A stretch of DNA of 64,000 bases from Armatimonadota bacterium (GCA_034722055.1 JAYENL010000243.1:3059-67058); one strand, 5' to 3'. Positions 13,639 through 32,559 are shown, numbered from the stretch's first letter. Notes: generated by a model not told the origin, from the sequence alone. Numbers and translations are program-made.

Positions 13639-13784
13639 CGCCGCGCCTGCCTGTCGCTCTCGCCCGACGCAAGGGCGGGCGAGGGCGCCCGGAGGCGCGT
13701 GCGCGCCTCTCCCCACGGCCACAACCCCGCCCGCCCCCAGATTCCGAAGGACAGGAGCACCGGGTCGTTGCCCAGCCGTCTGGA

Positions 13785-13821
13785 GGGGCCGGTCTCCGTC
13801 CCGGCCCCGGTCGTTTCTTGT
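13785..13821 (+). terminator. Candidate intrinsic terminator downstream of the LamG giant gene
   Basis: Perfect 8-bp GC stem GGGGCCGG-tctccgtc-CCGGCCCC followed by a T-rich tract GGTCGTTTCTTGT. Confidence 0.4.
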
Positions 13822-13852
13822 ACCCCGCCCGCGCCACTGCCGTTGCTCTCAT

Positions 13853-15910
13853 TCATGCGAACCACAGCAGGTAGCGCTTGGCGACCTCCTCATTGAAGGC
13901 CCCGACGATGCCCCAGATGCCGCCGGCGATCAGGAAGTGGCCGATCGCAAGGCCCAGGAAGACCGGCGTCAGGTTCCGGTAGGTCTGGGCGCCGCCCAGC
14001 CGCAGGATCATGGATTTGGCAAGCCACGCCAGGAAGATCGGGAACCAGATGGGGTGGCCGAAGGTCCCCGCCAGGGCCAGCCCCATCGGGTTCAGCGGAA
14101 AGCGCAGGAAGCGCGACCGCAGCCACAGCATCAGCAGCGACAGCGCCAGACCAGCTCCCCGCGCCATGGTGGTCGCGAGCTTCAGCGGCTCGCCGGTGAA
14201 GACGCGCGTCTCCAGCCTGGAGTACTGCCAGAGGGCCTGGCGCGTGCGATAGCCGCCCTGGGTGGTGCCGCCGTCGAGGATGTTCCAGCCGAAGTTGTAG
14301 GCATCCACGAGGTGGACGACGTAGCCCGCGACCAGCCCCCCGAGCAGCCCCAGGGCGATGGCGACCAGCAGGTGCCAGCGACGGATCCTGGCGCGCCTGG
14401 CGATGCGGATGCCCTCCAGCTCGTAGGCCCCGAGCTGCCCGAAGGTCATCCGCGCCAGCACCCGGAAGACCGCGAAGACGCTCTCGCTGCGAATGGCGGC
14501 CAGCGAAAGGCTGCCGCCGGTCGGCTGGACCGCCAGGATCGCGTCGAACATCTCCTCCCGCGGCACGCCGTAGGTGATGGGCAGGCCGGTCTGCGCCCGG
14601 ATGCGGGCGTAGACCAGCGAGCACACGTAGATGATGAGCACGTAGCTCAGCGCGGTGCCCGCCGACATCCCCGCCACGACCATCAGCGCAGTGATCCCCA
14701 CAACGCCCACGACCACGCCCCAGACCGCGATGCCGGGAGGGATGGCCTCATCGCCGCTGACCGCCGTCCCGTCGCCGATCGCCGCGCGCAGCGCCCCGCG
14801 CAGATGGCCTCGCGCAGCATAGATGACAAACAGCACCAGGGCGATGTAGGCCCCCAGGCCCTGCGGCCGATCGTAGGGGAAGCCGGCCGCGGAATAGCCG
14901 AAGAGCACCGCCACGAAGTTCTCGAAGCGCAGCAGCAGGTAGAACACCCACACGGACAGCAGCACATCGGTGGGCACGAGATAGCCCAGGCCGATGATCT
15001 CCGGGCGGAAGGTGAGATTCAGCGGCCGCAGGCCCGACCACGGTCGCTCGCTGAACAGCGGGCTGAGATTGTAGCTCTGGCCGATGGCGGCGATGCCGGG
15101 AAAGAAGGCATGGGCGATGTTGGAGCCGTCGTAGAGCGCGGCCAGCCCGAAGCCGATCCAGAAGAGCCAGGTATGCAAAAGCTGCGGCTGATCGGGCCGG
15201 TCGGGCGGATCGGGAGCGAGCCGCAGAGCCAGCTCCGCCAGCGGGAACGTCAGGTGCTCCCGCTCCGCCCAGGGCTCGCGGAACAGCGACACCAGGCAGC
15301 CCAGCGACAGCGTCAGCAGCATGAAGACGCCGCCCCAGGCCACCAGCACCGGCAGCCACGCCCGCCAGGGGACGGCGCCTCCCTCCACTCCCTCGTAGAA
15401 GCCGCGGATGAGCTGCTCGTCGGCGGGCATCAGCCACGTGGGGATGTGCGGCGCCAGGGCGGCGTACTCATTGCCCGTGGCGGCGAAGTAGCGCAGGCTG
15501 GTGATGGTGGCCAGGAGCTGGCGCACCCCGTTGGCGTCGATGGTCATGAAGGCGCAGGTGAGCAGGATGTAGACCACCAGCGCCTCCCGCCGCCAGCGGC
15601 GCGTGGCCGTAAGGCGTACCGACACCAGCCCGACCGCCGTCATCAGCACCAGGGCCGTCAGTGCCGGTATCGGCGGCGTGCCCTCCCCGACCAGGATCGT
15701 GAAGGCAATCAGGGAGGCCTTGCGGATCCACAGCGCCCCGATCGCCAGGAACGCCGCGGCCAGCAGCAGCGACCTCACTGAGAGCGCACGGCCCTCTGAC
15801 TGCGGCTGCACTGCGGGCCTCCCTTCTGTGGCGTTCGCGGCACGTGAGCAATACGGGCGTCTGTTGGGCCTGGCGCCACGCCACCCTCCATTCCCATCCC
15901 CCGGCGGCAT
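13853..15910 (-). CDS. Large polytopic integral membrane protein (about 14 predicted transmembrane helices), function unknown
   Basis: Continuous hydrophobic-helix-rich translation. Start chosen at MPPGDG (SD AGGAAGGG adjacent); the start is uncertain and could be 15970 or an internal M. Confidence 0.6.
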   Translation of the reverse strand: MPPGDGNGGWRGARPNRRPYCSRAANATEGRPAVQPQSEGRALSVRSLLLAAAFLAIGALWIRKASLIAFTILVGEGTPPIPALTALVLMTAVGLVSVRLTATRRWRREALVVYILLTCAFMTIDANGVRQLLATITSLRYFAATGNEYAALAPHIPTWLMPADEQLIRGFYEGVEGGAVPWRAWLPVLVAWGGVFMLLTLSLGCLVSLFREPWAEREHLTFPLAELALRLAPDPPDRPDQPQLLHTWLFWIGFGLAALYDGSNIAHAFFPGIAAIGQSYNLSPLFSERPWSGLRPLNLTFRPEIIGLGYLVPTDVLLSVWVFYLLLRFENFVAVLFGYSAAGFPYDRPQGLGAYIALVLFVIYAARGHLRGALRAAIGDGTAVSGDEAIPPGIAVWGVVVGVVGITALMVVAGMSAGTALSYVLIIYVCSLVYARIRAQTGLPITYGVPREEMFDAILAVQPTGGSLSLAAIRSESVFAVFRVLARMTFGQLGAYELEGIRIARRARIRRWHLLVAIALGLLGGLVAGYVVHLVDAYNFGWNILDGGTTQGGYRTRQALWQYSRLETRVFTGEPLKLATTMARGAGLALSLLMLWLRSRFLRFPLNPMGLALAGTFGHPIWFPIFLAWLAKSMILRLGGAQTYRNLTPVFLGLAIGHFLIAGGIWGIVGAFNEEVAKRYLLWFA

Positions 15911-16041
15911 CCCTTCCTGACGGGCCGTGAAGGCGCAGCCGCTGCCGCCGGAGAAGGCCCCTCCCGCCACGGGCAGACCGCTGAGCGTACGAGCGAGGCA
16001 GCGCCAGGCCGAGCGGCTGGCTCGCCGACCCGGGAGGGACG

Positions 16042-18594
16042 ATGGCAGTGGAGATCACGCTGACCCTGAGCTCTGTTCCCATATGTGTGATGCTGACGGC
16101 GTGCCTGATGGCCAGTGCGGTCTCCTGCCAGGCCGCGGAGCGCTTCGTGTCCACGGAGGGCAATGACGCCTGGTCAGGGACGCTGCCGGCGCCCAACGCG
16201 GATGGCACGGACGGGCCCTTCGCCACCCTCTCGCGCGCCCGGGAGGCCGTGCGGGAGCTCAGGGCCGCCGCTCCGGACGAGCCCGTGACCGTCACGGTGC
16301 GCGGCGGCACCTACTACCTGGGCGAGCCCCTGGTGCTCTCGGGCGCGGATTCGGGCGCTTCCGGCGCCCCCGTGCGCTGGCAGGCGCATCCCGACGAGAC
16401 AGTCGTGCTCAGCGGCGGGCGGCCCATCACCGGCCCATGGCAGCCCGGGGAGGGCGAGACCTTCGTCACCCGCGTGCCGGAGGTGGCTGACGGGGAGTGG
16501 TACTTCCGCCTGCTGCGGGTGGGCGAGGAGTGGGCGATCCGGGCCCGCTACCCGAACTACGACCCGGAGCATCCCTACACCGGCGGCTGGCTCTTCGTGA
16601 AGCCCTCCTCGCGCATCGAGGGGCAGTTCGGCAAGGCCGTCGGCAACATCCACAACCGCGGCGACATGATGCAGTGGACCGTCGAGATACCGGCGACCGG
16701 AGACTACAACGTCTTCCACTACTACGCGGCCGAGAACGAGCCCTGGGGGCGGACGGACATGGGCGGCCGCGTCGCCTTCACCGTGGACGACGGGGAGCCG
16801 GTCGTGCTGCAGAACCTGCAGGACACGGGGAGCTTCCGGACCTTCAGGTGGTCCGATGTGAACGCCACCGTCCGCCTGGAGGAGGGCACGCACACCATCC
16901 GGTGGGTCAATCAGCAGGGCGGGGGCATCAACTACGACGCCTTCGCCCTCTGCGACGATCCCGACTGGCGGCCGCAGGGCACGCTCCCACAGCCGCCGGA
17001 GCACGGGCACCTGGTGGTGGTGCACGCGGAGACCTTCGAGGAGTCCCGGGGCGAGGAGCTCTCGGTCAGCCTGCCTGCCAGCAGGCGCCACTTCGGCTTC
17101 GACCCCGACGAGATCCCCATGTGGGAGGCCGCCGAGGAGATCGAGATGCACGTCTTCCCGGCCTGGGGCTGGGTCAGCTCCATCGAGCCCGTCGCGGAGC
17201 TTGACCACGAGACGGGCCTGGGCACGCTCGCTGGGCGCGAGGCCAACCAGGAGCTGCGGGTGGGCAACCGCTACTACCTCGAGAACATCCTGGAGGAGCT
17301 GGACATGCCGGGGGAGTGGTACCTGGAGCGCGACACGGGCCTGCTGCACTACTGGCCGCGGGAGGAGGACTTCGCGCAGCGCGAGATCGTGGCACCGGTC
17401 CACGACCGCATCATCCACATCCGCCCCGACGAGCAGGGCCCGGCGCAGCATATCGAGATCGCTGGCTTCACCTTCATGGACACCGGCTATACGCCGCGCA
17501 TCGAGACTCCCTACTATCCGCCCGACGCCGCCATCTGGATCGAGGACTCCCATCAGTGCCTGGTGGAGGGCTGCCGCTTCACTCGCCTGGGCGGCAGCGC
17601 GCTGAATCTGGTGGGCGACGCCCACCACAACCGCTTCCTGGAGTGCACCGTCGAGCATGTCGGCCAGAACGGCGTCTTCATGAGGCCCACCGAGGACAGC
17701 GCACCGACCCAGAACACCGTGGCCGGCTGCCACATGCACCATCTGGGACTGATCTACAAGCACGTGGCCGGGGTCTACATCGGCTCCCGGCCGCCGGCGA
17801 TGGCGCAGGAGCCGGGGAACCTGATCGCCCGCAACCTCATCACCGACGTCCCCCGCTACGCCATCGGCATCAAGATGAACCAGGGCAATAACGTGGTGGA
17901 GTACAACCGGATCCATCGCACGAACCTGGAGACCAATGACACCGGGGGCATCGAGAGCTGCGTGCGCAACCGCGAGGCCGCCGGCAACACCATCCGCTAC
18001 AACCTCGTCATGGACACCATCGGCCTCAAGACCACTACGGACGGGCAGATCCTCACCCCCTACTACACCTGGGGCATCTACCTGGACGACCACTCCAGCC
18101 ACGCGCACGTGGTGGGCAACATCTGCGTCCGTAACTGGCGCGGCGGCGTGGTAGTGCATGGCGGGCAGCGGAACGTTATCGAGAACAACATCCTCGTCGG
18201 CTCTGAGCTGGGGCAGGCGGAGTTCAACAACATTCGGGGGCAGATGGTGCAGAATGTCTTCCGCCGCAACGTCTGCTGCCGCCTCGGCGAGGGCGGTGCC
18301 ATGCTCCGCTCCAACGGCTTCAACGAGGACGTGCTCGCTGAGTGTGACGGCAACCTCTACTGGAGCACCGCCGACCCGCCGGAGGCCCTGACCTTCGTCG
18401 GCAAGTCGCTTGAGCAGTGGCGAGAGCTGGGCTACGACGAGCACTCGGTGGTCGCCGAGCCGGGGTTCGCGGATCCGGAGGCCGACGACTTCACGCTGGC
18501 GGCCGATTCGCCGGCCTTCGAGCTGGGCTTCCAGGCCATCCCGGTGGAGCGGATCGGACTCGCCGGCTACGACCGGGAGAGCTACGCACCGTAG
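16042..18594 (+). CDS. Secreted right-handed parallel beta-helix protein with an inserted CBM6/35-like beta-sandwich
   Basis: N-terminal signal-like hydrophobic segment. Beta-helix family N-terminal signature (GTDGPFATLSRAREAVREL...VTVRGGTYYLGEPLVLSGADSG...VLSGG). CBM-like insert (GDYNVFHYYAAENEPWGRTDMGGRVAFTVDDGE...INYDAFAL). Paralog of 36948..39710. SD GGGAGGGA. Confidence 0.75.
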   Translation: MAVEITLTLSSVPICVMLTACLMASAVSCQAAERFVSTEGNDAWSGTLPAPNADGTDGPFATLSRAREAVRELRAAAPDEPVTVTVRGGTYYLGEPLVLSGADSGASGAPVRWQAHPDETVVLSGGRPITGPWQPGEGETFVTRVPEVADGEWYFRLLRVGEEWAIRARYPNYDPEHPYTGGWLFVKPSSRIEGQFGKAVGNIHNRGDMMQWTVEIPATGDYNVFHYYAAENEPWGRTDMGGRVAFTVDDGEPVVLQNLQDTGSFRTFRWSDVNATVRLEEGTHTIRWVNQQGGGINYDAFALCDDPDWRPQGTLPQPPEHGHLVVVHAETFEESRGEELSVSLPASRRHFGFDPDEIPMWEAAEEIEMHVFPAWGWVSSIEPVAELDHETGLGTLAGREANQELRVGNRYYLENILEELDMPGEWYLERDTGLLHYWPREEDFAQREIVAPVHDRIIHIRPDEQGPAQHIEIAGFTFMDTGYTPRIETPYYPPDAAIWIEDSHQCLVEGCRFTRLGGSALNLVGDAHHNRFLECTVEHVGQNGVFMRPTEDSAPTQNTVAGCHMHHLGLIYKHVAGVYIGSRPPAMAQEPGNLIARNLITDVPRYAIGIKMNQGNNVVEYNRIHRTNLETNDTGGIESCVRNREAAGNTIRYNLVMDTIGLKTTTDGQILTPYYTWGIYLDDHSSHAHVVGNICVRNWRGGVVVHGGQRNVIENNILVGSELGQAEFNNIRGQMVQNVFRRNVCCRLGEGGAMLRSNGFNEDVLAECDGNLYWSTADPPEALTFVGKSLEQWRELGYDEHSVVAEPGFADPEADDFTLAADSPAFELGFQAIPVERIGLAGYDRESYAP

Positions 18595-18819: not shown

Positions 18820-21519
18820 ATGACATCGAGGATGCGTTCAGACCTCGCGAAGTGCATGCCATCGGCCTGCGCCATCGCATTGCTGCTGCTCATGCCGGCC
18901 CCTCGCACAGCGGCCCAGGGCAACACCGAAGCGGAGAAGGAGTTCGCCTTTGCCGAGGGCCTCTACGGGCAGGAGAACTACGAGCTGGCGCTGGAGAAGT
19001 ACGAGGCCTTCATCGAGGCCCACCCGGAGCACGCCAACGCCTCTCTGGCGGTGTTCCGGGCGGGGGAGTGCAACTTCCGGCTGGAGCGGTTCGGGGAGGC
19101 CGCGGGCTGGTTCGAGCGGGTGACCGAGCAGTTCACCGGCAGCGATGAGGAGGAGCCCGCGTGGCTGTGGCTGGGCGACGCCCGCTTCAAGGCCGGAGAC
19201 TACGAGGAGGCTGCGGCGGCGTATGAGAGGCTCATGGAGAAGTTCCCCAACAGCGATCACGCCGCCGCTGCGGCCTACTGGCGGGCGGAGAGCTACTACT
19301 ACCTGAAGCGGTTCGAGGACGCCATCGCCGCCTACCAGATGGCTCTGCAGCGGGGCCTGGGCGAGCACGAGGCGCCCTACGCCCGCTACTCCATCGGCCT
19401 GGCGTATCTGCAACTGGAGCAGCCCGCCGAGGCCGTTGAGCACCTCTCGCGCGCGGTCCAGGACTACCCCGACAGCCCGGTGGTCGCTGAGTGCCAGTAT
19501 CTGTTGGGCAACGCCTACCGGAGTCAGTCGGACTTCGCGGAGGCCGAGAAGGCCTATCGGGCCGTGCTGGAGCGCCATGCCAACTCCCCCCTGGCGGCAG
19601 ACGCCCAGTTCGGCCTCGCGGTCTGCCACTTCAGGCAGAAGCAGTTCGAGGCCGCGCGTGAGGCGTACCAGGCGGTCATTGCGAACCACCCGGACAGCGA
19701 CGTGGCGGCCGAGGCTCGCCTGCGGGTCGCCGACTGCCTGTTCCACCTGAAGCGGTGGGACGAGGCCGCCCAGGCCTATCAGGCCGTTGTTCAGGCCGGC
19801 GGCACGTGGGCGCCGGAGGCCCTCTTCTGGCTGGGCGTGACGCAGCACCGAAAGGGCGACGCCGCGGAGGCCATCGCCACCCTCCAGGGCCTGGTGCAGA
19901 GCTATCCCGACAGCGAGCGCGTCGGGGATGCGTGGCTCCGCATCGCCGACATCAAGGCCTCCCAGGGCGACCACGAGGGCGCCATGGCGGCCTACTCGAC
20001 GGCCACGGAGTCCATCCAGGATCCCCAGCGGCGGCAGGAGGCGCTCGTGGCCCTGCAGTGGGCCCGCTTCCAGCAGAGCCAGTCGCCCGACGCGCTGGCG
20101 GAGCTGGAGAAGCTGGTGCGCGATGAGCCGGACTCCGAGCTGGCCGCGGAGCTTGCCTACCGCATCGGCCGCGTGCATTTCGAGGCCGGTGGCTACGAGA
20201 GGGCCATCGAGATGCTCACGCTGCTGACAGAGCATCACGCTGAGAGCCCGCGCTCCGCGGATGCCACCTACCTGCTGGCCGCCTCCCACGACCGCGCCGG
20301 CAATGCCGAGGCGGCACAGCGCCTCTACCAGCAGATTCTGGACGAGGCCGGGGAGGGGGAGGGAGGCGGCTACGCGGCCGCGGCCCTGGTGGGGATCCAC
20401 GCCGAGCGGGGCGACATCGACCAGGCCAGGCGGCTCATCTCCGAGATGGAGGATGGCGGCGCGGACGGCGCCAGCCTGGGCTTCGCCCTCTATCGCGTGG
20501 CGGAGGCGCTTCGCGAGGCGGAGAAGTACGACGAGGCGCTGCCGCTTTACGAGAAGGCCCTGCGCGTGGCGCCGGAGGCCGAGAGTGCGCCCTACGCCCG
20601 TGTTGGGGCCGGCTGGTGCCGGCTTGAGCCCGACCCGTCCGCGGCTCTGGAGGCCTTCAGGGCGGTGGTGGCGGACAGCCCCGAGTCCAGCGCCGTGCCG
20701 GGGGCCCTCACCGGGATGACCGCCGCGGCCCAGAAGCTCTTCGAGGCCGAGGACTACGCCGCTGCCGCGCAGGTCTATGACCAGATCATCCAGGACTTCC
20801 CAGAGTCCGAGATCGTGGGCCAGGCACAGTACGGGCGGGCGTGGGCGCTGCTGCGGCAGGAGAGGGAGGAGGAGGCGCTGCCACTGTTCCGCGCCGCGGC
20901 GGAGTCGGCGGCATCCCCGGCCGTCGTGGGCGACGCCCGTTACCAGGCCGCGCGCCTGCTGTTCGACCAGGAGAAGTACGATGAGGCCGTGAGCCTCCTG
21001 GAGCCGCTGCGAGGAGCTGAGGGGGACGCCGAGAGGCTGCCGTGGGCCCTGGCCCTGCTGGGGCGCAGCCACCTGCAGGCCGGCAGCGCAGAGCAGGCGG
21101 CGGAGGTCCTGCAGGAGGTGCTGGCGCGCTGGCCCGAACACCAGGCCAGCGCCGGCGCGAGCCTCGATCTGGGTCGCGCATACCGGAGCCTACAGCGCTA
21201 TGACGAGGCCGTGGAGCCCCTGCAACGGGCGGCGGAGGCAGACAACGCCGCAATCGCCGCGCAGGCCCAGCGCGAGCTGGCGGCCACCGCTCGCGACAGC
21301 GGCGACATCGCCAAGGCGGCGGAGGAGTTCCTGCGCGTCGCGATCCTGTATCCCGACAGCGAGTGGGCGCCGGCGGCGCAGTTCGCGGCGGGGCAGTGCT
21401 ACGAGCAGCTCGGCCAGACGGACAACGCCATCAACAGCTACAACGTCATCCTGCGCCAGTACGCCGACCAGGAGGAGTGGGCGCGGAAGGCGCAGGACCG
21501 CATCGATCAACTGCAGTAG
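18820..21519 (+). CDS. Large (899 aa) tetratricopeptide-repeat protein (CpoB/YbgF-like repeats), first gene of the ExbB-ExbD operon
   Basis: Signal peptide CMPSACAIALLLLMPAPRTAAQG followed by more than 15 TPR-like ~34-aa repeats (…AEAEKAYRAVLERHANSPLAADAQFGLAVCHFRQKQFEAAREAYQAVI…). SD AAGGA upstream. Confidence 0.8.
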   Translation: MTSRMRSDLAKCMPSACAIALLLLMPAPRTAAQGNTEAEKEFAFAEGLYGQENYELALEKYEAFIEAHPEHANASLAVFRAGECNFRLERFGEAAGWFERVTEQFTGSDEEEPAWLWLGDARFKAGDYEEAAAAYERLMEKFPNSDHAAAAAYWRAESYYYLKRFEDAIAAYQMALQRGLGEHEAPYARYSIGLAYLQLEQPAEAVEHLSRAVQDYPDSPVVAECQYLLGNAYRSQSDFAEAEKAYRAVLERHANSPLAADAQFGLAVCHFRQKQFEAAREAYQAVIANHPDSDVAAEARLRVADCLFHLKRWDEAAQAYQAVVQAGGTWAPEALFWLGVTQHRKGDAAEAIATLQGLVQSYPDSERVGDAWLRIADIKASQGDHEGAMAAYSTATESIQDPQRRQEALVALQWARFQQSQSPDALAELEKLVRDEPDSELAAELAYRIGRVHFEAGGYERAIEMLTLLTEHHAESPRSADATYLLAASHDRAGNAEAAQRLYQQILDEAGEGEGGGYAAAALVGIHAERGDIDQARRLISEMEDGGADGASLGFALYRVAEALREAEKYDEALPLYEKALRVAPEAESAPYARVGAGWCRLEPDPSAALEAFRAVVADSPESSAVPGALTGMTAAAQKLFEAEDYAAAAQVYDQIIQDFPESEIVGQAQYGRAWALLRQEREEEALPLFRAAAESAASPAVVGDARYQAARLLFDQEKYDEAVSLLEPLRGAEGDAERLPWALALLGRSHLQAGSAEQAAEVLQEVLARWPEHQASAGASLDLGRAYRSLQRYDEAVEPLQRAAEADNAAIAAQAQRELAATARDSGDIAKAAEEFLRVAILYPDSEWAPAAQFAAGQCYEQLGQTDNAINSYNVILRQYADQEEWARKAQDRIDQLQ

Positions 21520-21570
21520 TGGCTCCCTTGCTGGAGGGCTGCCATTCAGTGACACTGCGTCGGAGGGAAG

Positions 21571-22230
21571 ATGCCGATGGGAAGCATTGCTGCCCGGTCC
21601 GCTCTGCTCGACTACTTCGTGCGGGGCGGCTCCTGGATGTGGGTGCTGCTGGCATGCTCTATCATTGCGCTGGCCGTCATCATCTACAAGCTGATCGGCC
21701 TGTGGGTGGCCAGCCGCGGCGCGAGCAACCTCGTCTCCGAGGTCATCAGCCTGATGGAGGCCGGCGAGCGGGATCAGGCGCTTGAGCGCGCCGCTGAGTC
21801 CTCGGCGGCGATCGGGAACGTCCTGCACTCGATCCTGGCGACCACAGATGAGGAGAACCATCAGGCCCCTCTGGAGGCTGCGGAGGCCGCCGGGGCCGCC
21901 GAAGTGGCCTCGCTCGAATCCGGCCTGCCGGTGCTCTCAACGATCGCCAACGTGGCCCCCCTGATCGGCTTCCTGGGCACGGTCAGCGGGATGATTCGGG
22001 CCTTCACGGCCATCGCCGAGTACGGGCTCGGGGAGCCGGGCGTGGTGGCGGCGGGCATTGGCGAGGCGCTGATCACCACCGCCTCCGGCCTGATTGTGGC
22101 CATCCCCTGCTTCGTGGCCTACGGCTTCTTCATCTCGCGGGTCAACCGCCTGGCGCTGGGCATCGAGATGGCGGGCACGCAAATGGCGAACCTGCTGTCA
22201 CGGGAGGGAGCCGACGTCGATGAAGCTTAA
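21571..22230 (+). CDS. exbB: MotA/TolQ/ExbB family proton-channel protein
   Basis: Three transmembrane helices and the family motif LIGFLGTVSGMIRAF...ALITTASGLIVAIPCFVAYGFF. SD GGAGGGAAG 4 nt upstream. Confidence 0.85.
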   Translation: MPMGSIAARSALLDYFVRGGSWMWVLLACSIIALAVIIYKLIGLWVASRGASNLVSEVISLMEAGERDQALERAAESSAAIGNVLHSILATTDEENHQAPLEAAEAAGAAEVASLESGLPVLSTIANVAPLIGFLGTVSGMIRAFTAIAEYGLGEPGVVAAGIGEALITTASGLIVAIPCFVAYGFFISRVNRLALGIEMAGTQMANLLSREGADVDEA

Positions 22231-22648
22231 ATCACGCCTCCCACCACTCAATCCCCTGCCCATGACCACCATGGCCGATGTGGCCTTTCTGCTGATCATC
22301 TTCTTCATGCTGACCAGCACCTTCGCCCGGGACACGGGGCTGGACATCACGCTGCCGAAGGCCATAACATCGGAGAAGCTGCCCAAGCGGGAGATCACCA
22401 TCTGGGTGAACCGCCACGGGCAGGTGAGGGTCAATGAGAACTGGATTGAGCCGAAGCAGCTCATGGGGGTGCTGCGCGCGGAGTTCGCGAAGGCGGACGT
22501 GACGGGCGTCACGATTCGCGGCGATGAGCGCGTTCCCTACGGCACGATCGTGACGGTGATGGACACCGCCAAGCTGCTCGGCGCGAACATCACGCTCGCG
22601 GCCGAGGTCGAGGAGGGCCACCCGGGCGCCGTCGTCGAAGAGCCGTAG
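22220..22648 (+). CDS. exbD: ExbD/TolR biopolymer transport protein
   Basis: MKLKSRLPPLNPLPMTTMADVAFLLIIFFMLTSTF... is the ExbD/TolR signature. Overlaps the exbB stop by 11 nt (translational coupling). SD GGGAGGGAG. Confidence 0.85.
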   Translation: MKLKSRLPPLNPLPMTTMADVAFLLIIFFMLTSTFARDTGLDITLPKAITSEKLPKREITIWVNRHGQVRVNENWIEPKQLMGVLRAEFAKADVTGVTIRGDERVPYGTIVTVMDTAKLLGANITLAAEVEEGHPGAVVEEP

Positions 22649-22672
22649 CCAGGAGGACGGGCGGGAGCTGCC

Positions 22673-25537
22673 ATGACGAGAGGTCCGAGCTTCAAGTGGG
22701 CGTTGTTCTGCTCGGTGATGATTCACATCATTCTCTTCCTCACCGTGCCGATGGGCGGGACCATCGGCGAGGTGCGGGACCACGCCGTGCGGCGGGTGAC
22801 CGAGACCGCGGTGGAGTTCGTGACCTTCGTCAAGCCCAAGCCCCCGCCGCCCGAACCGAAGGTCACCAGGCAGCCGCGGCGCGTGGTGCGGCGTGTGGTG
22901 CGGCGCCCTCGCACGCCGAGGCGCCGCGCGCGTCCTGAGCCGAAGCCCGCGGCGGAGGAGGAGCCCGCCGAGGAGGAGCCTGCGCCTGAGGAGGCGCCCG
23001 AGCCCGAGGCCCCGCCCGAGTCCGCACCAGAGCCAGAGCCGGAGCCCACTCCGGAGCTGGCCGTCATGGCTCCCGAGCCGGTCGAGCCCGAGCCTGCTCC
23101 AGAGGCTGAGCCCGAGCCCGAGCCGGTGCTCCTGCATCCCGCCCCTGAGGCCCTTGGCGGCCTTGAAGCTGGGCCGGAGAGCCCCCAGGCCGGAGGCGGC
23201 GTCGAGGTCGCGAAGGCCGCCCCCGAGTTGGGTTCAGCCGCACCTGCGCCTATGCCCGCAGGCGTCGAAGACACCCCCGCAGGCGGCGCGGCGCCGGTGG
23301 CCGTGGTGCCACCGGGCTCAGGCGGCGGGGCCGCTCCCGGACCTCCTACGCCAGGCCCGGTCATCGCGTTCGGACCGTCTCCTGAGGACGCCCCCGACAC
23401 CCCGGGTCTCGCGGCAGGCCCCGGGGAACAGGGCTTGCCCAAGGCTGCGCCGGAGCTGAGGAGTCCCGGGGCCGGGCCAGCCGGCGCCGGCAGCGGAGCT
23501 GCAGGCGCTCCCGGTCAGGGCCCCGGAGCTCCGGGCCTCGGCCCGGTTGTCGCCACTCGCACGCGGGCTCCTGCCGGCCCTGGCCGCGGCCCGAAGCCTC
23601 CCGGCACGGCACCAGGCCCGGCCGGTGGCGGCGCTCCCGTCGGGCCCGGCACGGGTGACGCCCCTCCAGGGCCCGAGGGCGGCGGCACCGGCGGTTCGGA
23701 GCCGAAGCCCGCGCCAACGCGCATGGCGGCGGCCCCCGGTCCCGCGCCCGCGGGAGGCGGCGGCACCGCCGGCGCCCCGGGTGGTGGCTCGGGCGGCGAG
23801 GGCCAGCAGGCCGCCGGCCCGGCCATGATCGCCGCCAACCCCCGCGGGGATCGGCCCATCTACATCGGCGCGGGCTCGGGTGAGGGCCTCGGCCGCGGCC
23901 AGGGCGAGGGTTCTCCCGGCGGCGGGCCCTCCGGAGGCGCCGGCGAGGGCACCGGCGCCGGCACACTCGCCGGAGTCCCGAAGGCGACGCCCGGGATGGG
24001 CAGCGGAGGATCGGGAGGAGGGGGCTCCGGAGCGCCGGCGCTCAGAGGCGGCGGTGGTGGCGGAGCTGGCGGCACCGGCGGCGGCAGGGGCCGTGGCAGC
24101 TCAGGCGGTGGTACCGGGGGCGGCGGCACGGGCGGCGGCGGACCTGGTACCCCGGTAATGGCAGCCGGGGGCGGCGGAGGGAGCGGCGGCTCCGGCGGCG
24201 TCGGTGAGGGGCCCGGCCTGCCTGGCGGCCTCGGCTCCGGCGAAGGAGAGGGATACGGCCTTGCGGGCACAGGCACCGGCCTGGGCCTCGCTGGCCCGGG
24301 GCCCGGCTCCGGCGGCACCGGCTATCTGCTGGCCAAGGCCATGCCCGCAGGAGGCGGGGGCGGCGGCGCGCTGCCCGGCATCGGTGGTGAGGGCCCTGGC
24401 GGAGGCCAGGGCGGTCAGGGCGGCATCGGTACCGGCACCGGCGGCGGCATCGGCCACGGCACCGGTCCGGGTATCGGCCCGCTGGGGCCGAAGGCCGTGG
24501 GGATGGGCCCCGGCGAGGCGGTGCCCGGCGAGCGGCCTCAGATCATCCCAGGCTCCCTCCTGGCGGCGCTGTCAGGCCCGCTGGGGTTCGGCGGTGGGCC
24601 TGGCTCGGGGCTCGGCGCCGGCACGGGAGGGCTGCCCGGCAAGTCCGGACCCGGCATGACGCCCGGCGGCGCGGGGCTGGTGGCCCCAGTCGGTCGCGGC
24701 CTCGGCTTCGGTGGCGGTCTCGGCGGCGCTGGCGGAGGCACCGGCCTGGGCGCCGGCGGCGGACCGGTGGGCTTCGGCCTGCCGACGGCCGGAGGCACCG
24801 GCGGCGCGGGCCTCCCGCCGCTGCCAGGCCAGGGACCTTTGCTGCTCGCCAGCTCAGCCGGGCTCGCCCCCGGAATGGGTGGCATCGGCACCGGCATGCC
24901 TGGCGGGAAGAGCGGCCCCGGCGGCGGCCTCTACACCGGCGTGAGCGGCAGCTTCGACATGCCTATGGGCGTGACCACCGGCGACTACCAGGCGGACGCC
25001 CCCGGCATGCTGCACCTGCTCGGCCAGGTGCGTCAGCGCACGAACATCCACGTCACCGTGCACGAGCGCTACGTGCCGCTGACGCTGGAGAACATCAAGG
25101 ACTCTCCGGTCCTGCACCTGCGCGGGCACCGAGCTTTCAGCCTCACCGAGGAGGAGCGGGAGGTGCTGCGGCAGTACGTGGCACAGGGCGGGACGATCTT
25201 CGGCGAGGACTCCCACGGGCCCTTCGGGGAGTGCTTCCGGCGCGAGATGAAGAAGACCTTCGGCGAGAGCCTCACGGATCTGCCTGACAACCACGACCTC
25301 TACCGCGCATACTACGTCCTGGATCGCGTGCCGGCGGGGGACATGGGCGAGCGCTACCCCCTGCAGGGCATTGAGGCGGGGGATCGCCTGGGCGTGATCT
25401 TCTCGCGCAACGACTACGGGGACTGCTGGGAGGGGACCGGCGAGTGGGTGCGCCCGGAGGCCCGGGAGCCGGCCTTCCGCATGGGCGTGAACATCTTCAC
25501 CTACATCGTGGCCCAGTGGAAGGAGTACAGCAAGTAG
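22673..25537 (+). CDS. TolA/TonB-like envelope protein: N-terminal TM anchor, Pro/Glu-rich spacer, glycine-rich low-complexity region of roughly 350 aa, C-terminal DUF4159 domain
   Basis: N-terminus MTRGPSFKWALFCSVMIHIILFLTVPMGG (TonB/TolA-like anchor). (EP)n spacer. Extreme Gly composition across about aa 400-760. C-terminus HLRGHRAFSLTEEEREVLRQYVAQGGTIFGEDSHGPFGECFRREMKKTFG...GDCWEG...AFRMGVNIFTYIV matches my memory of DUF4159. SD AGGAGGA. Confidence 0.75.
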   Translation: MTRGPSFKWALFCSVMIHIILFLTVPMGGTIGEVRDHAVRRVTETAVEFVTFVKPKPPPPEPKVTRQPRRVVRRVVRRPRTPRRRARPEPKPAAEEEPAEEEPAPEEAPEPEAPPESAPEPEPEPTPELAVMAPEPVEPEPAPEAEPEPEPVLLHPAPEALGGLEAGPESPQAGGGVEVAKAAPELGSAAPAPMPAGVEDTPAGGAAPVAVVPPGSGGGAAPGPPTPGPVIAFGPSPEDAPDTPGLAAGPGEQGLPKAAPELRSPGAGPAGAGSGAAGAPGQGPGAPGLGPVVATRTRAPAGPGRGPKPPGTAPGPAGGGAPVGPGTGDAPPGPEGGGTGGSEPKPAPTRMAAAPGPAPAGGGGTAGAPGGGSGGEGQQAAGPAMIAANPRGDRPIYIGAGSGEGLGRGQGEGSPGGGPSGGAGEGTGAGTLAGVPKATPGMGSGGSGGGGSGAPALRGGGGGGAGGTGGGRGRGSSGGGTGGGGTGGGGPGTPVMAAGGGGGSGGSGGVGEGPGLPGGLGSGEGEGYGLAGTGTGLGLAGPGPGSGGTGYLLAKAMPAGGGGGGALPGIGGEGPGGGQGGQGGIGTGTGGGIGHGTGPGIGPLGPKAVGMGPGEAVPGERPQIIPGSLLAALSGPLGFGGGPGSGLGAGTGGLPGKSGPGMTPGGAGLVAPVGRGLGFGGGLGGAGGGTGLGAGGGPVGFGLPTAGGTGGAGLPPLPGQGPLLLASSAGLAPGMGGIGTGMPGGKSGPGGGLYTGVSGSFDMPMGVTTGDYQADAPGMLHLLGQVRQRTNIHVTVHERYVPLTLENIKDSPVLHLRGHRAFSLTEEEREVLRQYVAQGGTIFGEDSHGPFGECFRREMKKTFGESLTDLPDNHDLYRAYYVLDRVPAGDMGERYPLQGIEAGDRLGVIFSRNDYGDCWEGTGEWVRPEAREPAFRMGVNIFTYIVAQWKEYSK

Positions 25538-25543
25538 CGGCCG

Positions 25544-26572
25544 TCACGGCCGGGGGCGCCACGAGTACGGCATGTCCCTGACCGGCCCCCCGCTCACCTC
25601 GACCACCTGCGAGCCGTCGGCGTTCGCCACGTAGAGTCGCTTCTCTCCAGTTCGGTCCGACAGGAAGGCGATCTTGGACCCGTCCGGCGACCACTGTGGA
25701 GCCCACTCGTTGGTGGCGGTGTCGGTGATGTTCGTCTTCTCCCCGCTCGCCAGGTCGGCGATGACGATCTCCCTGTTGCCCGCAGGCGATGAGGCGTAGG
25801 CCAGCTTAGTCCCGTCCGGCGACCACGCTGGCTCCTCGTTCCACACGGTGTTGGCGCTGACGTTGGTCACCGCGCCCGTGGCGAGCTCGCAGACGTATAC
25901 GGCAATGTTGCCGTCCCGGTGAGTCCGAAAGGCCAGCCGCGTGCCGTCCGGCGAGAAGGCCGGATCGCCGTCCCAGGCCTGGTGGGTGGCGATAACCCGC
26001 ACGTCGCTGCCGTCCGTCCGACTGATCAGCACATCCTGGTTGCCGCCGCGGTCGGCGACCCACGCGATCAAGTCCCCCGCGGGCGACCAGACGGGAGCGG
26101 TGTCCCAGCCCGGGAAGTGCGTCACATTGCGCACGGCTGAGCCATCGGCGCCACATGTGTAGACCTCGGCGTCCCCGGTGCGGTCGCTGCTGAAGATCAG
26201 CCGCCGGCTGTCCGGCGACCAGTTCGGGGCATCGTCGAAGCCGTCCGAGTTCGCGATCACGCGCAGGCTCCCCCCGCGGGGGTCCATGAGGTAGATATCC
26301 TGGTCGCCCCCGCGGTCGGATACGAAGGCGATGTGCTTTCCGTCCGGCGACCACACGGGCCTCAGGTCCTCCGCCTCGTTCCGAGTGAGGCGCCGCAGCT
26401 TCGAGCCGTCCGCGGCCACCACGTAGATCTCAGGGTTCCCGTCGCGCGCGGATACGAAGGCCAGCTCATCGGCGACCGCTGATGATCCCCCTGCCAACAT
26501 CATCAGTAGGGCGATCGCCAGCGTGACATGCAGCGCGCCGTCTCGTGTGCAAGCCGCCACCGAACATCCCAC
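25544..26572 (-). CDS. TolB-like periplasmic beta-propeller (PD40/WD40-like repeats), propeller only; GTG start
   Basis: Signal peptide then repeated PD40-like units ([23 protein letters not shown] / [20 protein letters not shown] / [19 protein letters not shown] / [22 protein letters not shown]). Convergent with, and 6 nt from, the TolA-like gene. Confidence 0.75.
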
Positions 26573-26697: not shown

Positions 26698-27153
26698 TTA
26701 CCGGCCCTGGCCTCGGCCACCACCGCGTGGTCCGCCGCGGCCTCCGAACATCCCGGTGGACAGCAGCTCCTGCAGCTTCGTCCACTGCTGGTCGCTGAGC
26801 ACCTCCTGCAGCTTCTCCTCAAGGGCGCTCCTGCAGTTGACCATCGCTTCCCTCACGCCCTGGAAGTCCTGGGCCTCCATGGCGGCCTGGATGCCCTCGT
26901 TCCGGAGCTGAAGCTGCTGCCGGTAGGTCGGCCTGAGCTGCTCGAGCTGCTCGCTCGTGCATTCGAGCTGGAAGGACACGGCCGTCCACGTGCGCTCCAG
27001 GTACATCATGTCGCCCCTCATGCCCCACTGCCCAGCGCCCTGCCGGCCGGCGCGACGGCCCTGTCCCTGCTGGCCGAAGGCGACTGTCAATCCCGCGACG
27101 ATCAGCGCCACCGCCACCACCGCAGTCCCGACCCACATCACTCTGCGACTCAT
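26698..27153 (-). CDS. Small periplasmic Spy/CpxP-like (LTXXQ-motif) protein with RGG-rich tail
   Basis: Start at MSRRVMW with strong SD GGAGGAG. TM/signal segment. Motifs LECTSEQLEQLRP and LSDQQWTKLQEL. Confidence 0.5.
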   Translation of the reverse strand: MSRRVMWVGTAVVAVALIVAGLTVAFGQQGQGRRAGRQGAGQWGMRGDMMYLERTWTAVSFQLECTSEQLEQLRPTYRQQLQLRNEGIQAAMEAQDFQGVREAMVNCRSALEEKLQEVLSDQQWTKLQELLSTGMFGGRGGPRGGGRGQGR

Positions 27154-27416
27154 GACATCTCCTCCTCGTGCACCGTCCGTCATCTCTTCGATTCTCGCTC
27201 CTGGCGGCCTCTGATCCGGCCGCCGAAGCCGGTGCTGTCCCAACGGGTGAGATACTCACTGATTCAGACGCATCGGCAGCGGGTCCGATTCCACCAATTC
27301 CGCATGCGCTACCGCAGGATGAGCAGAGGCGTCTCGCCCAGCTCCCTCTGCACGTCGAGGCGCTCTCCTCCAGTTGCCACCGTCTCGCCTGTGAGACATG
27401 CCCGCGGCGACCGCGG

Positions 27417-29036
27417 TCAGTCAGCCGCCAGCAGCTCCACGGGCTTCCAGATCCCGCCTGCCAGCACGCGGTCGAGGACTCGCACGGCCACCACGTTCTC
27501 GCCCTCCCGCAGCGCATCGGTGACGTCCACCGCAAACGGCCTGTCCCACCCCGCCTCGCCGATGTCGTGCTGCCCCGCGAGCTGGCCGTTCACGTATACC
27601 CACGCGGACTCATCGACAGCGCCGAATGAGAGGAGGAGCGTGACGTTTTGGGGCAGCTCCTGCGCGGTGAAGCGCACGCGATACCAGGCCACGCCATCGT
27701 AGTCCACGCCCTGCTCCTCCCACGCCCGATCCACGCTCAGAGTCCGCCATTCGGAGTCGTCGAAGTCCGGTCGGAAGTAGCCGGCGCTCAGGCCGGCGTT
27801 GTCGGGATCGGTGATGAAGCGCCACTCGAGGGGGAGCCGCACAAGCACGCGAGCATCATCCGGGGGTGCGCTTGCCTGAACGGCCGACGCGCCGGCGGTG
27901 GCCGCGATGGTCGCCTCCCGGTAGGCCTCCGGGTAGGTGTCGCCGTACCATCGCTTTGCGCGCTCCGCCCATACCCAGACGTAGCGGTCAGCGAGGCCCA
28001 GGGCCGCGGTGAGCGTCTGCTGCAGCGACTGGGGCGAGTGGTAGTTGGCGGAGAAGTCCTCGGTGGACCACTCCTTGCTGCGGTGGTCCAGCCACACCCC
28101 GAAGCCGGCCTCGATGCCCGCGTCATACAGCCGGGGCACGCTCGAGAGCCGCCGCCCGACGTCCCTGATGGTGTGATACGCCGACAGGAAGTCCCGCTCG
28201 CTCCTGTAGGGGTACGAGAACTCGAAGCCGTCCACGATGCGCGCCGCGTCCGTCTTCCCCTCCAGCATACCGTCCACGAAGGCCGGCAGCAGCCCGTATC
28301 CGGTCTCCTGCAGGGCCGTGCCCCCGGACATGTAGTGGACGCTGGAGCTGTTGCACCACACGCACAACAACGTGATCTCGGGGAACGCCTCGCAGGCGGC
28401 AGCCATCCACTCTCGCCCGCGGTCTCGGGCGTGCTGCTGATACTCCTCGAAGCTGCGCTGGTCAGCGTGCGGGCGGTCCGGGTAGTAGAACAGGCTCAGG
28501 CCGGAGTAGCTCTCCACATCGAAGAAAAGCCCCGTGAGGCCGGCCTCGCGGGCGATGGTCGCCATCACCCCGATGTTGTGCACCGCGGCATGAAAGTCCG
28601 CGTCACAAAAGTCCACCTGCGCGGGGATTGCGTGCACCAGCAGGAAGTTGTCCGTCAGGTTCCGGAACGCGCACTGCTGCAGGTCGTCGATCACCCAGCG
28701 CCAGTCCTCAAGCTCCAGGCGCTGCGGCACGAAGACCCGGTCGGCGAGCCGGAACCGCTCCTCCCCGCGCCGAGTGTCAACCCGGTTGGGCAGCCTCGGA
28801 TCATGGCAGACGTTGATGACCACGCCCTGATAGCCGCTGCGCTCGAACACCTCCAGGTTCTCGCGCAGATACAGCGTGTTGGGGCTGTCCCAGCCGAAGG
28901 CGATGAGCCTCTTGCCATGCAGAGGATGCAGCTCCGCAGGCGAGATGGCCTCCGCCCGGACGGGAAGCGTCGCGGCCAGCAGTACGAGCGCCACCAATGC
29001 CATTCTGAGCGCCGTTCCGTCGAGGATTCGTTGCAT
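27417..29036 (-). CDS. Secreted hypothetical protein with C-terminal galactose-binding-like (GH2 N-terminal sugar-binding-like) domain
   Basis: Signal peptide MQRILDGTALRMALVALVLLAATLPVRAEA. C-terminus WRTLSVDRAWEEQGVDYDGVAWYRVRF...SAWVYVNGQLAGQHD...VVAVRVLD. Confidence 0.65.
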   Translation of the reverse strand: MQRILDGTALRMALVALVLLAATLPVRAEAISPAELHPLHGKRLIAFGWDSPNTLYLRENLEVFERSGYQGVVINVCHDPRLPNRVDTRRGEERFRLADRVFVPQRLELEDWRWVIDDLQQCAFRNLTDNFLLVHAIPAQVDFCDADFHAAVHNIGVMATIAREAGLTGLFFDVESYSGLSLFYYPDRPHADQRSFEEYQQHARDRGREWMAAACEAFPEITLLCVWCNSSSVHYMSGGTALQETGYGLLPAFVDGMLEGKTDAARIVDGFEFSYPYRSERDFLSAYHTIRDVGRRLSSVPRLYDAGIEAGFGVWLDHRSKEWSTEDFSANYHSPQSLQQTLTAALGLADRYVWVWAERAKRWYGDTYPEAYREATIAATAGASAVQASAPPDDARVLVRLPLEWRFITDPDNAGLSAGYFRPDFDDSEWRTLSVDRAWEEQGVDYDGVAWYRVRFTAQELPQNVTLLLSFGAVDESAWVYVNGQLAGQHDIGEAGWDRPFAVDVTDALREGENVVAVRVLDRVLAGGIWKPVELLAAD

Positions 29037-29293
29037 GGCGGGCCTCCTTCAGCGTGGGAGTGATCCGCGCCGCCGTGACGAGTGTCGTCTTCGCCACGAT
29101 AGCGCGCATTCCTGCCAGTGGCGGCTCGCAGGTCGGCCTCACGCAGCCGCCGCGGGCCGTCCACCGGAAGAGGTGCCCGGCCGCGCAGGTCTCGACCTGC
29201 TGCCGGCGAAGCCACCCACGGCAGCGGCTGCACGTCGCCGTTGCGTCTCGACAGAGCCTGTCACATGTCGCCGCACGTGAGGTGAGTCATCAG

Positions 29294-30349
29294 ATGGAGC
29301 CGGTGAAGATGGGCGTCATTGGCTGCGGAGTCATCGGCAGCCGCAATCTGCAGGACGCGCAGGCCAGCGAGCTTATCGACGTGGTCGCCGCCGCTGACCT
29401 GCGCGTGGAGCGCCGGGAGTGGGCCGCCGAGCAGGGCGTGCCTCGCATCTACGAGGACGGCCGCGATCTCCTGGACGAGGATGAGGAGGTGGAGGCTGTC
29501 ATCATCGCCTTCCCCGCGGCGGCCCGCACCGCCATGGCGCTGCGGGCCTTCGCGCGCGCCAGGCACGTGCTCGTCGAGAAGCCCGTGGCCATGAACGCCG
29601 CCGAGGTGGAGACCATGATCGAGGCCAAGGGCAACCTCGTGGCCGGCTGCTTCTCCGGGCGCTACCGGGCCTACGACTCCGCCGACGTGGCGACGCAGTT
29701 CGTGAGCGCCGGCAACCTGGGGGAGCTGCGGGAGCTGCATATCCGGGCGCTGATGGCCGCGGGGCCGCGCACCGACAGGGTGCCCCCGCCGTGGCGGGAG
29801 TCCTTCTGCATGAACGCGGGGGGCATCCTGACCAACTGGAGCTGCTACGACATGGACTACATCCTGGGCGTGGCGGGCTGGAGCTTCCGGCCACGCATGG
29901 TCCTGGCCCAGACGTGGCCCTGCGCGGAGCAGTTCCGACACCACGTGGCGCCCGAGTCCGACGCCGACGCGCACTTCTCCGCCTTCGTCCGCGGCGACGC
30001 CGGCGCCGTCCTGACGGTCGAGCGCGCTGAGTTCGCGGCGGCGGCCACGCAGCAGGCCTGGCAGATCGTGGGCACCGACGGGGCGCTGCGGCTGGAGATG
30101 CTCGCCACCGGGGAGCGGGAGATCATCCACGACGAGGGCCGCGGCGAGGAGGGCGTCGTCTCGAACACCCTCTGGAAGGGCGACGATCGCGAGGGCGGGG
30201 GCAATCCCCGGCTGATCGAGCGCTTCGCCCGCGCCGTCCGCGGCGATGGGAAGCCCGTGACCACCCTGGAGCAGTCGCTGGTGATCGCGCAGATCAGCGA
30301 CGCCATCTACCAGTCCGCCGCCAGCGGTGAGGCCGTGGAGATCCTGTAG
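29294..30349 (+). CDS. Gfo/Idh/MocA family NAD(P)-dependent oxidoreductase
   Basis: MEPVKMGVIGCGVIGSRN (Rossmann GxGxxG), EKP motif (HVLVEKPVA). SD GAGGTGAG upstream. The upstream 80 codons of the track ORF are discarded. Confidence 0.8.
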   Translation: MEPVKMGVIGCGVIGSRNLQDAQASELIDVVAAADLRVERREWAAEQGVPRIYEDGRDLLDEDEEVEAVIIAFPAAARTAMALRAFARARHVLVEKPVAMNAAEVETMIEAKGNLVAGCFSGRYRAYDSADVATQFVSAGNLGELRELHIRALMAAGPRTDRVPPPWRESFCMNAGGILTNWSCYDMDYILGVAGWSFRPRMVLAQTWPCAEQFRHHVAPESDADAHFSAFVRGDAGAVLTVERAEFAAAATQQAWQIVGTDGALRLEMLATGEREIIHDEGRGEEGVVSNTLWKGDDREGGGNPRLIERFARAVRGDGKPVTTLEQSLVIAQISDAIYQSAASGEAVEIL

Positions 30350-30568
30350 CAAACCCGTCGGCAAGGGCCGGATGTGACCGCGGGGCGCCGTCGCCGGCGG
30401 TGGTCCCCTGCCCCGAGGGACGTCACCGGCATCACTTCCGAGATTCGTCGTCAAGAGGGGTTGCGCGCAGCGCTGGAGTACGCTATAATCGTTGCAATAT
30501 CAACTATTCTGCCGAGCCCTGGCTGGCGGCTGACGCACCCGTGCTGGTTCTGCAAGGAGGCCCGCCTC

Positions 30569-32491: not shown

Positions 32492-32559
32492 GCTCCCGAC
32501 CGCTGCTGGCCACGGTCACAAGGGGGGCAGACGCCTCCGACGCGGACCCCTGTCGCTGA

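Follow-up and report, generated by a model that had tools for sequence, protein, structure and literature searches.

A stretch of 64,000 nucleotides from an Armatimonadota bacterium (GCA_034722055.1, JAYENL010000243.1:3059-67058), hereafter the window, was analysed; positions are counted from its first letter. Positions 18820-26572 probably encode an envelope machine of the Ton/Tol type, driven by the proton motive force, which is Tol-like, lacks Pal and would use a 954-aa protein as its force transducer. This protein carries a TonB/TolA-like membrane anchor, a long linker and a C-terminal DUF4159 head. Its gene follows those of a giant tetratricopeptide repeat (TPR) protein, an ExbB-family protein and an ExbD-family protein. 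The arrangement is conserved across classes of the Armatimonadota.

Gene order of the module

The window has a G+C content of ~69%. Region 18820-26572 contains four co-directional genes on the + strand and one convergent gene on the - strand. A first-pass annotation of the window had described the + strand genes as an operon in the order TPR, ExbB, ExbD and fourth gene, and all of the open reading frames (ORFs) were recovered at their coordinates. The first encodes a giant, predicted periplasmic TPR protein of 899 aa with YbgF/CpoB-like TPR modules and a signal-peptide-like N-terminus (18820..21519, +). It is followed by genes for an ExbB/TolQ-family proton-channel subunit of 219 aa (21571..22230, +), an ExbD/TolR-family subunit of 142 aa (22220..22648, +) and the TonB/TolA-like transducer of 954 aa (22673..25537, +), which holds anchor, linker and DUF4159 head in one ORF. 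The ExbD ATG at 22220 lies 11 nt inside the ExbB gene, which reproduces the overlap given previously, and the 954-aa gene begins 24 nt past the ExbD gene. The convergent gene (25544..26572, -) encodes a 342-aa PD40 beta-propeller with TolB-like repeats, predicted to be periplasmic. Its stop codon and that of the 954-aa gene are 6 nt apart. Pfam searches matched MotA_ExbB, ExbD, PD40 and DUF4159 in the respective products.

Among the larger ORFs of the window there was no match to the OmpA/Pal family, in agreement with the first-pass annotation, and none to TonB_C. No TonB-dependent receptor was found in the window, and none was conserved across the 22 loci compared below. No anti-phage defence model was matched with PADLOC. 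Promoter and terminator scans of the window gave nothing informative.

Anchor and linker of the 954-aa protein

The N-terminal end of the 954-aa protein is short, basic and predicted to be cytoplasmic, and leads into a single hydrophobic helix, the anchor (aa 8-27, KWALFCSVMIHIILFLTVPM; 22694..22753, +). Ser14 and His18 of this helix (CSVMIH) are spaced like the SHLS motif of TonB and TolA. In an alignment of 11 orthologs S14, H18 and P26 were invariant, and the S-x3-H spacing was also present in the further relatives L032, L037, L038 and P0132-P0208.

TonB, TolA and their relatives headed by a von Willebrand A (vWA) domain share three hallmarks: the SHLS helix, a post-helix strand termed the 'motor box' and a disordered or Pro-rich domain II (PMC12204202). 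By analogy with that description, a conserved beta-strand-like segment seen in the alignment (aa 44-54, ETAVEFVTFVK; 22802..22834, +) is a candidate motor box in the correct position. It has alternating hydrophobic residues, with V47 invariant in the 11 orthologs, and alternating hydrophobic segments resembling it follow the helix in L032, L037 and L038.

The linker (22835..24922, +) was recognised by its composition. A Pro run, an Arg-rich basic block (RRVVRRVVRRPRTPRRRARP) and an acidic (EP)n block are followed by disordered Gly/Pro/Ala-rich low-complexity sequence. As measured, the linker spans aa 61-749 and is 689 aa long (G 0.33, P 0.17, A 0.13). The anchor helix and (EP)n block of the first-pass annotation were thus both present, and its figure of ~350 aa for the Gly-rich segment was too small: the disordered Gly-rich stretch is ~590 aa long (aa ~160-750), with a few short hydrophobic islands. 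Linkers of the orthologs were 577-769 aa long (G 0.22-0.34). Repeats in the DNA of the linker were short and imperfect only. Linker units of ~85 aa were seen in L004 (8246-10771; ~3 copies) and L019 (6167-8743), with hydrophobic islands (GLGMAMLVGLPGG ... GGPVVIVLGGG) that may serve as short motifs for binding partners such as the TPR protein.

Integrity of the reading frame

Exact look-up of the 954-aa protein returned no record, and public gene calls for its closest homologs (61-86% head identity) are only 170-350 aa long. Anchor, linker and DUF4159 were found in one frame at 10 independent orthologous loci, with lengths of 842-1034 aa, and the 954-aa ORF is therefore a real single gene. L004, for example, has a single 842-aa ORF of the same layout, most of which is uncalled in the public annotation. 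Full-length calls of 675-947 aa also exist in databases. In databases generally, gene callers shorten the transducer to 170-350 aa or, as in L004, miss most of it; examples are L001, L004-L006, L011, L015, L016, L018, L020, L022 and L023, and many contigs end within the Gly-rich region. The transducer gene of L002/L017 (one contig; GCA_964639415.1, CAZXDD010000005.1) seems split into 589-aa and 294-aa products because, inside the linker, an Illumina adapter remnant (CTCCACGACGCTCTTCCGATCT; L002 9623-9644) adjoins an N run. Owing to shortened calls and to assembly breaks in the Gly-rich linker, public protein sets largely fail to show the architecture.

The DUF4159 head

The C-terminal head (aa 751-954; 24923..25534, +) matched PF13709, DUF4159, at aa 770-945 with 112.6 bits (cutoff 25.9; E 2.4e-32). 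There was no Pfam match to TonB_C or TolA_C in the 954-aa protein, and no NCBIfam TonB match. An AlphaFold model of the head, built from a 23-sequence alignment, had a predicted local distance difference test (pLDDT) score of 83.7 and a predicted template modelling (pTM) score of 0.84, and showed an alpha/beta fold like that of class-I glutamine amidotransferases (GATase1). Fold searches led to DUF4159/GATase1-like structures, including the fold of 4I66; a von Willebrand A fold was not found when the head was tested for one. In a sequence profile search of the PDB, the only match was 4I66 (E 1.1e-26), the crystal structure of the DUF4159 protein Hoch_4089 of Haliangium ochraceum. From the fold and from this single PDB match, the head is not a diverged TonB_C or TolA_C domain, and the earlier assignment of the C-terminus to DUF4159 holds.

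Forty heads were aligned (11 from the close clade, 19 divergent fused and 10 standalone). Nine positions were invariant in 40/40 (P62, G68, G89, G90, F105, F113, P137, A184 and N190). No Cys, Ser, His or Glu was invariant across the alignment, and the Cys-His-Glu triad of class-I glutamine amidotransferases was absent. A GATase-type enzyme was accordingly rejected, and the lack of invariant catalytic residues suggests a non-catalytic binding module rather than an amidotransferase-type enzyme. Structural similarity to non-catalytic GATase1-like modules (the IFT52 GIFT domain, ThuA-like proteins, OST48/WBP1 and the GH42 middle domain) is remote, at 8-16% identity, and does not justify functional transfer.

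ExbB and ExbD

ExbB matched PF01618 (MotA_ExbB) with E 6.6e-29 and ExbD matched PF02472 with E 1.3e-24. The best NCBIfam models were TolQ for ExbB (95.9 bits, far under the cutoff of 221) and TolR for ExbD (52.5 bits, far under the cutoff of 127). In PDB sequence searches the best solved relatives of ExbB were TolQ (E 1e-16) and then ExbB, and that of ExbD was ExbD (E 1.4e-6). The ExbB Thr motifs GFLGTVSGM and EALITTASGL and the transmembrane Asp of ExbD (MADVAFLLIIFF) were retained in all orthologs inspected, L037 and L038 included. Conservation of these residues makes the motor look competent.

TPR and PD40 proteins

TPR repeats span the whole of the 899-aa protein. Many TPR families were matched (TPR_16, E 1e-80). 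The tol_pal_ybgF model TIGR02795 gave 310.8 bits (cutoff 90.1), spread over 11 repeated stretches, and the CpoB equivalog NF008068 gave 164 bits (cutoff 383). The TPR domain of E. coli CpoB binds TolA domain II, and the TPR protein described here may by that token bind along the linker.

The PD40 protein contained six PD40 matches (E 2e-60). It scored 285.9 bits with the TolB model TIGR02800 (cutoff 343). There was no TolB_N match in this protein, as the first-pass annotation had proposed, and the mature protein opens directly in the propeller. Six 'WSPDG'-type blades are preceded by a partial N-terminal blade that could be closed by the C-terminal 'YSWRP'. An AlphaFold 2 model was made from the single sequence (pLDDT 73). 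Foldseek searches with this model favoured TolB by E-value and gave higher TM-scores to seven-bladed propellers. The propeller is probably seven-bladed, versus six blades in TolB, and this count is tentative because it comes from a single-sequence prediction of that pLDDT.

Conservation of the module

Genomes were scanned with the close-clade alignment of the head, which gave 20 loci, all in Armatimonadota metagenome-assembled genomes (MAGs) and mostly in 'Candidatus Zipacnadia'. The order TPR (~900 aa), ExbB, ExbD, transducer was present in 10/10 Zipacnadia-like loci with enough upstream DNA and also in L002/L017; the TPR gene lay upstream of the motor in 12/12 loci with enough DNA. When ORFs from 22 loci were clustered, the conserved genes were those for TPR, ExbB, ExbD, transducer and PD40, and the flanks varied. 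No sixth conserved gene, Pal and outer-membrane transporters included, was found across the 22 loci.

The whole 954-aa protein was also searched with phmmer against 1.84 billion representative proteins. Further full-length relatives of 675-870 aa (33-50% identity) were recovered, each with an S-x3-H helix, a Pro/Arg/Lys-rich and Gly-rich linker and a C-terminal DUF4159. The gene order was again found in a Candidatus Fervidibacterota MAG (L037: TPR 904 aa, ExbB, ExbD, transducer 827 aa) and in an Armatimonadota MAG (L038: TPR 982 aa, ExbB, ExbD, transducer 776 aa), whose heads share 37-42% identity with that of the window. The 899-aa TPR protein is collinear end to end with its 904-aa counterpart in L037 (28% identity, E 1e-88). 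A profile search with distant fused heads yielded 6 matches, none of them the query proteins, and a metagenome scan for the P0143-like subfamily gave three short contigs with no usable context.

The label given to relatives in named sources is either 'DUF4159 domain-containing protein' or 'hypothetical protein'; none is called TonB. The architecture is widespread within the Armatimonadota only, as far as named records show.

The PD40 gene adjoins the module in 17 loci, either convergent and downstream or on the same strand just upstream of the TPR gene. In the remaining Zipacnadia-like loci the sequence is cut where the gene would lie. PD40 linkage is limited to the Zipacnadia-like clade. In L037, 6-10 kb upstream of the module (1-3489), lie genes for an HtrA-type protease and for a PD40/Tricorn-like protein of 999 aa; the PD40 gene may be a distant echo of the Zipacnadia linkage.

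A small ORF upstream of the PD40 gene (26698-27243, -), with no Pfam match, codes for a helical region rich in Gln/Glu and a tail rich in Gly/Arg, together with a transmembrane or signal segment. It was rejected as a member of the module, being common only to the closest relative, L005.

DUF4159 in other contexts

DUF4159 is a large family, with >7,900 matches in one search. Most of its members stand alone or are joined to non-motor modules, and DUF4159 elsewhere carries signal peptides. Among non-fused proteins the head is closest (33-41% identity) to ~220-aa secreted proteins, which come from Gemmatimonadota, WOR-3 and other groups. At loci L025-L031, from Gemmatimonadota and WOR-3, a standalone DUF4159 gene (210-231 aa) is followed by a gene for a ~1000-1270-aa protein with N-terminal transmembrane helices, a long coiled coil and a weak DUF4175 match, and then by a TPR gene. 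In the Gemmatimonadota loci an RsmI-like methylase gene precedes this cluster and a gene for a ~420-aa protein follows it. The L025-L031 clusters contained neither motor genes nor any for MoxR or vWA proteins. Pairing of DUF4159 with a TPR gene was seen in three independent contexts.

Five kinds of DUF4159 architecture were seen among the phmmer matches P0170, P0211, P0172, P0150/P0155 and P0185/P0217. These were DUF4159 with CARDB, a BNR/sortilin propeller and an OmpA-family (peptidoglycan-binding) domain; one fusion of vWA with DUF4159; squalene-cyclase-like repeats with two DUF4159 domains; tandem DUF4159 proteins; and DUF4159 behind an N-terminus that resembles an anti-sigma factor by eye and has no Pfam match.

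Judged by signal peptides, fusions to envelope modules and TPR-paired clusters, DUF4159 is an extracytoplasmic envelope module that recurs with TPR partners. The first-pass annotation had placed DUF4159 normally in Bat/MoxR-vWA contexts. Among the contexts inspected, this was not seen for the nearest standalone relatives; one protein did fuse vWA with DUF4159. MoxR AAA+, DUF58 and vWA (BatA/BatB) neighbours were absent from the window and from every locus examined, the standalone-DUF4159 loci included.

Genomic flanks

Very large secreted proteins resembling carbohydrate-active enzymes (LamG, right-handed beta-helix, CBM6/CBM11, GHL10, GH2_N and GH123_N) are encoded at 2-18594 and 27417-44779 of the window. 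A DUF6785/DUF6784 membrane protein is encoded at 13853-15970 (-), and a 1684-aa ORF with no Pfam match lies at 39725-44779 (-). None of these flanking genes is conserved beside the module in relatives.

A cluster at 45788-52732 (-) resembles a group-4 [NiFe] hydrogenase or Mrp-type complex, with a NuoH-like protein, a 49-kDa/NiFeSe large subunit, a 20-kDa small subunit and two Proton_antipo_M subunits. Hydrogenases have been reported for Zipacnadia, and the cluster is consistent with them. At 54221-55672 (-) lies an acetate kinase gene (PF00871, E 4e-148), in line with the acetogenic or fermentative metabolism proposed for the Zipacnadia class.

Discussion

In the mechanism proposed here, ExbB and ExbD (ExbB5-ExbD2) would form an inner-membrane motor that converts proton flow into movement. 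The transducer helix would dock on the ExbB ring via H18 of the S-x3-H motif, and the conserved strand behind it, the candidate motor box, would engage ExbD. The long Pro/Gly-rich disordered linker would cross the periplasm and carry the pull to the head, and the non-catalytic DUF4159 head would grip a putative partner at either the cell wall or the outer membrane. One periplasmic partner would be the giant CpoB-like TPR protein, perhaps positioned along the linker; in the Zipacnadia-like clade the PD40 propeller would be a second, clade-specific one.

Coupling of the 954-aa protein to ExbBD is a well-founded inference from the sequences, because S14, H18, P26 and V47 are invariant, the motor residues are conserved and the hallmarks are those of the TonB, TolA and vWA transducers. 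The operon reading is strengthened by synteny that persists down to 28% (TPR) and 37-42% (head) identity, and by the S-x3-H anchor motif, the ExbD Asp and the ExbB Thr motifs. The same observations support the suggestion, made in the first-pass annotation, of a machine driven by the proton motive force with DUF4159 as its output domain.

Several points weigh against this mechanism. Binding of the anchor to ExbB and ExbD is read from sequence features, and the head has a partner that is only putative. Both ExbB and ExbD fall under the equivalog cutoffs of the Tol and Ton models, and their solved relatives are mixed, with ExbB leaning to TolQ and ExbD leaning to ExbD. H69 and H124 of the head are each retained in 35/40 heads, and a ligand or metal site is possible there. 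The PD40 gene is not adjacent in L038, and L037 has only the distant Tricorn-like PD40 protein in its vicinity. In the divergent L032/L033 lineage a 1049-aa TPR gene is directly followed by a 794-aa fusion gene, with no ExbBD within 10 kb.

The closest precedent is the group of vWA-headed transducers (Williams-Jones et al. 2025, Mol Biol Evol msaf138, PMC12204202). These too combine an SHLS/His helix and the motor box behind it with a linker that is disordered or Pro-rich and a head unrelated to TonB_C or TolA_C, and their genes lie downstream of TPR and tolQ/tolR-like genes. They differ in having a vWA head in place of the GATase1-like DUF4159 head, a heterologous pair of tolR/exbD-like genes rather than one, and a linker of ~100 aa versus ~690 aa. 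They occur in the PVC group (Planctomycetes, Verrucomicrobia and Chlamydiae), Bacteroidetes and Proteobacteria, whereas the present module is found in the Armatimonadota (Terrabacteria), where a PD40 propeller is linked to it in one clade.

The module resembles Tol-Pal in having a motor that matches TolQ/TolR at family level, a TolA/TonB-type anchored tether, a TPR protein with CpoB/YbgF-like modules, a TolB-like PD40 propeller and tight clustering. Unlike Tol-Pal, it has no Pal/OmpA gene (window and 22 loci) and no TolA domain III. TolB has an N-terminal alpha/beta domain and six blades, whereas the propeller here is without that domain and is probably seven-bladed. In size the TPR protein is 3.4 times CpoB. 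Lacking both Pal and a true TolB, the module is not a Tol-Pal system. The resemblance to the Ton system lies in the ExbB/ExbD-family motor, the S-x3-H anchor helix and the acidic (EP)n and basic Pro-rich spacer blocks. The Ton system has TonB_C, which is missing here, and TonB-dependent receptors, none of which lies in the window or is conserved in the 22 loci. Relative to TonB, the basic and acidic blocks come in the opposite order and the linker is many times longer. The transducer would work like TonB and TolA yet lacks the C-terminal domain that defines each of them. As a DUF4159 domain the head is a true member of its family, whose typical members are ~220-aa secreted proteins or are fused to extracytoplasmic modules. 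It apparently represents a third head class for ExbBD-coupled transducers, characteristic of the Armatimonadota.

In the searchable literature DUF4159 appeared only in a Pfam database paper, no prior description was found of ExbBD with Bat/aerotolerance genes, and papers on Zipacnadia and Fervidibacter do not discuss Ton or Tol genes. The available parts of the 2025 force-transducer survey do not mention DUF4159: its main text has no 'DUF' and its supplements name no Armatimonadetes (PMC12204202). A DUF4159-headed transducer thus appears to be new. The concept is not wholly new, because vWA-headed transducers encoded behind TPR-tolQ-tolR genes were published in 2025.

Among other explanations, the one that fares best, though we regard it as unlikely, is that the module is a nutrient-uptake analogue of TonB, in which the DUF4159 head replaces TonB_C and energises an outer-membrane importer (e.g. 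of glycans) in saccharolytic bacteria. The TonB-like N-terminal half, with its S-x3-H and its Pro-rich acidic and basic blocks, would suit this role. The flanks of the window are rich in glycoside-hydrolase/CBM proteins, and Ton systems have been reported in Armatimonadetes and pre-date Tol. Against uptake, no gene for a TonB-dependent receptor or outer-membrane transporter is conserved near the module in the 22 loci, where the flanks vary. The conserved partners are CpoB-like and TolB-like rather than transporter-like, and the head is ~2x the size of TonB_C and of unrelated fold.

We give slightly less weight still to a surface machine, with motor and transducer powering gliding, adhesion or the secretion of surface structures in parallel to Myxococcus Agl-Glt. 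Gliding, adhesin and secretion genes are not conserved beside the module in the 22 loci, and nothing in the loci indicates a surface filament. The idea derives some support from the GATase1-like fold, which is common to the GIFT domain of IFT52. A GIFT domain is also said to be present in GldG, a protein of bacterial gliding. A surface-machine role has been suggested for the vWA-headed transducers (Williams-Jones et al. 2025, PMC12204202).

It is improbable that the 954-aa protein is encoded beside exbBD by chance, as a periplasmic DUF4159 protein with a membrane anchor and possibly with enzymatic activity. The anchor S-x3-H is invariant, and lineages with no more than 37-42% head identity still have the order exbB-exbD-transducer, in which the genes overlap or are separated by short gaps. 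Such a reading would fit the TPR and fusion genes of L032/L033 with no exbBD nearby, the mostly standalone or non-motor settings of DUF4159, and the fairly good conservation of H69 and H124. As tonB is often unlinked from exbBD, L032 does not contradict motor coupling.

Finally, the chance joining of a short TonB-like anchor gene to a 200-350-aa DUF4159 gene in G+C-rich low-complexity DNA can be dismissed with near certainty: close homologs are publicly called at 170-350 aa, many alternative-frame ORFs overlap the region and L002 looks split, but the frame is uninterrupted from anchor to head in ten independent loci (842-1034 aa), database calls reach 675-947 aa, short calls are truncated starts or contig ends, and the L002 split falls at the assembly gap.

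For the proposed motor-coupled module, we favour with moderate confidence a Pal-independent role in envelope maintenance or division rather than nutrient import, given the CpoB-like and TolB-like partners, the lack of a linked transporter gene and the fact that curated Tol-Pal systems have been reported only in Gracilicutes. Zipacnadia encode genes for lipopolysaccharide synthesis. Fervidibacter sacchari, a cultured member of the Armatimonadota, is diderm with a periplasm of 55.5 +/- 3.5 nm. By rough estimate, a coil of 690 residues would measure ~24 nm end to end when relaxed, and its contour length would exceed 200 nm. Linkers of 580-770 aa are compatible with a 55.5-nm periplasm and would have ample reach under tension.

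The known head types of ExbBD/TolQR-coupled transducers are the TonB_C/TolA_C fold and, since 2025, vWA; DUF4159 would add a third, in a module conserved across classes of a whole phylum outside the Gracilicutes. It would also provide a first functional handle on DUF4159 and link an extreme linker length to the 55-nm periplasm of a cultured relative. The locus exposes a systematic failure of annotation, in which gene calls are shortened and assemblies break in the Gly-rich linker. The reading is testable, because there are cultured Armatimonadota, Fervidibacter sacchari among them.

More tentatively, the module may be the counterpart of Tol-Pal in the Armatimonadota (Terrabacteria), a Pal-independent system driven by the proton motive force that stabilises or constricts the outer membrane across a wide periplasm, with the DUF4159 head as force-bearing connector to wall or outer membrane and the TPR protein riding on the linker. 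In that case DUF4159 would serve generally as an envelope connector, which would also explain why, in other phyla, thousands of secreted DUF4159 proteins are paired with TPR proteins and with coiled-coil proteins that span the membrane.

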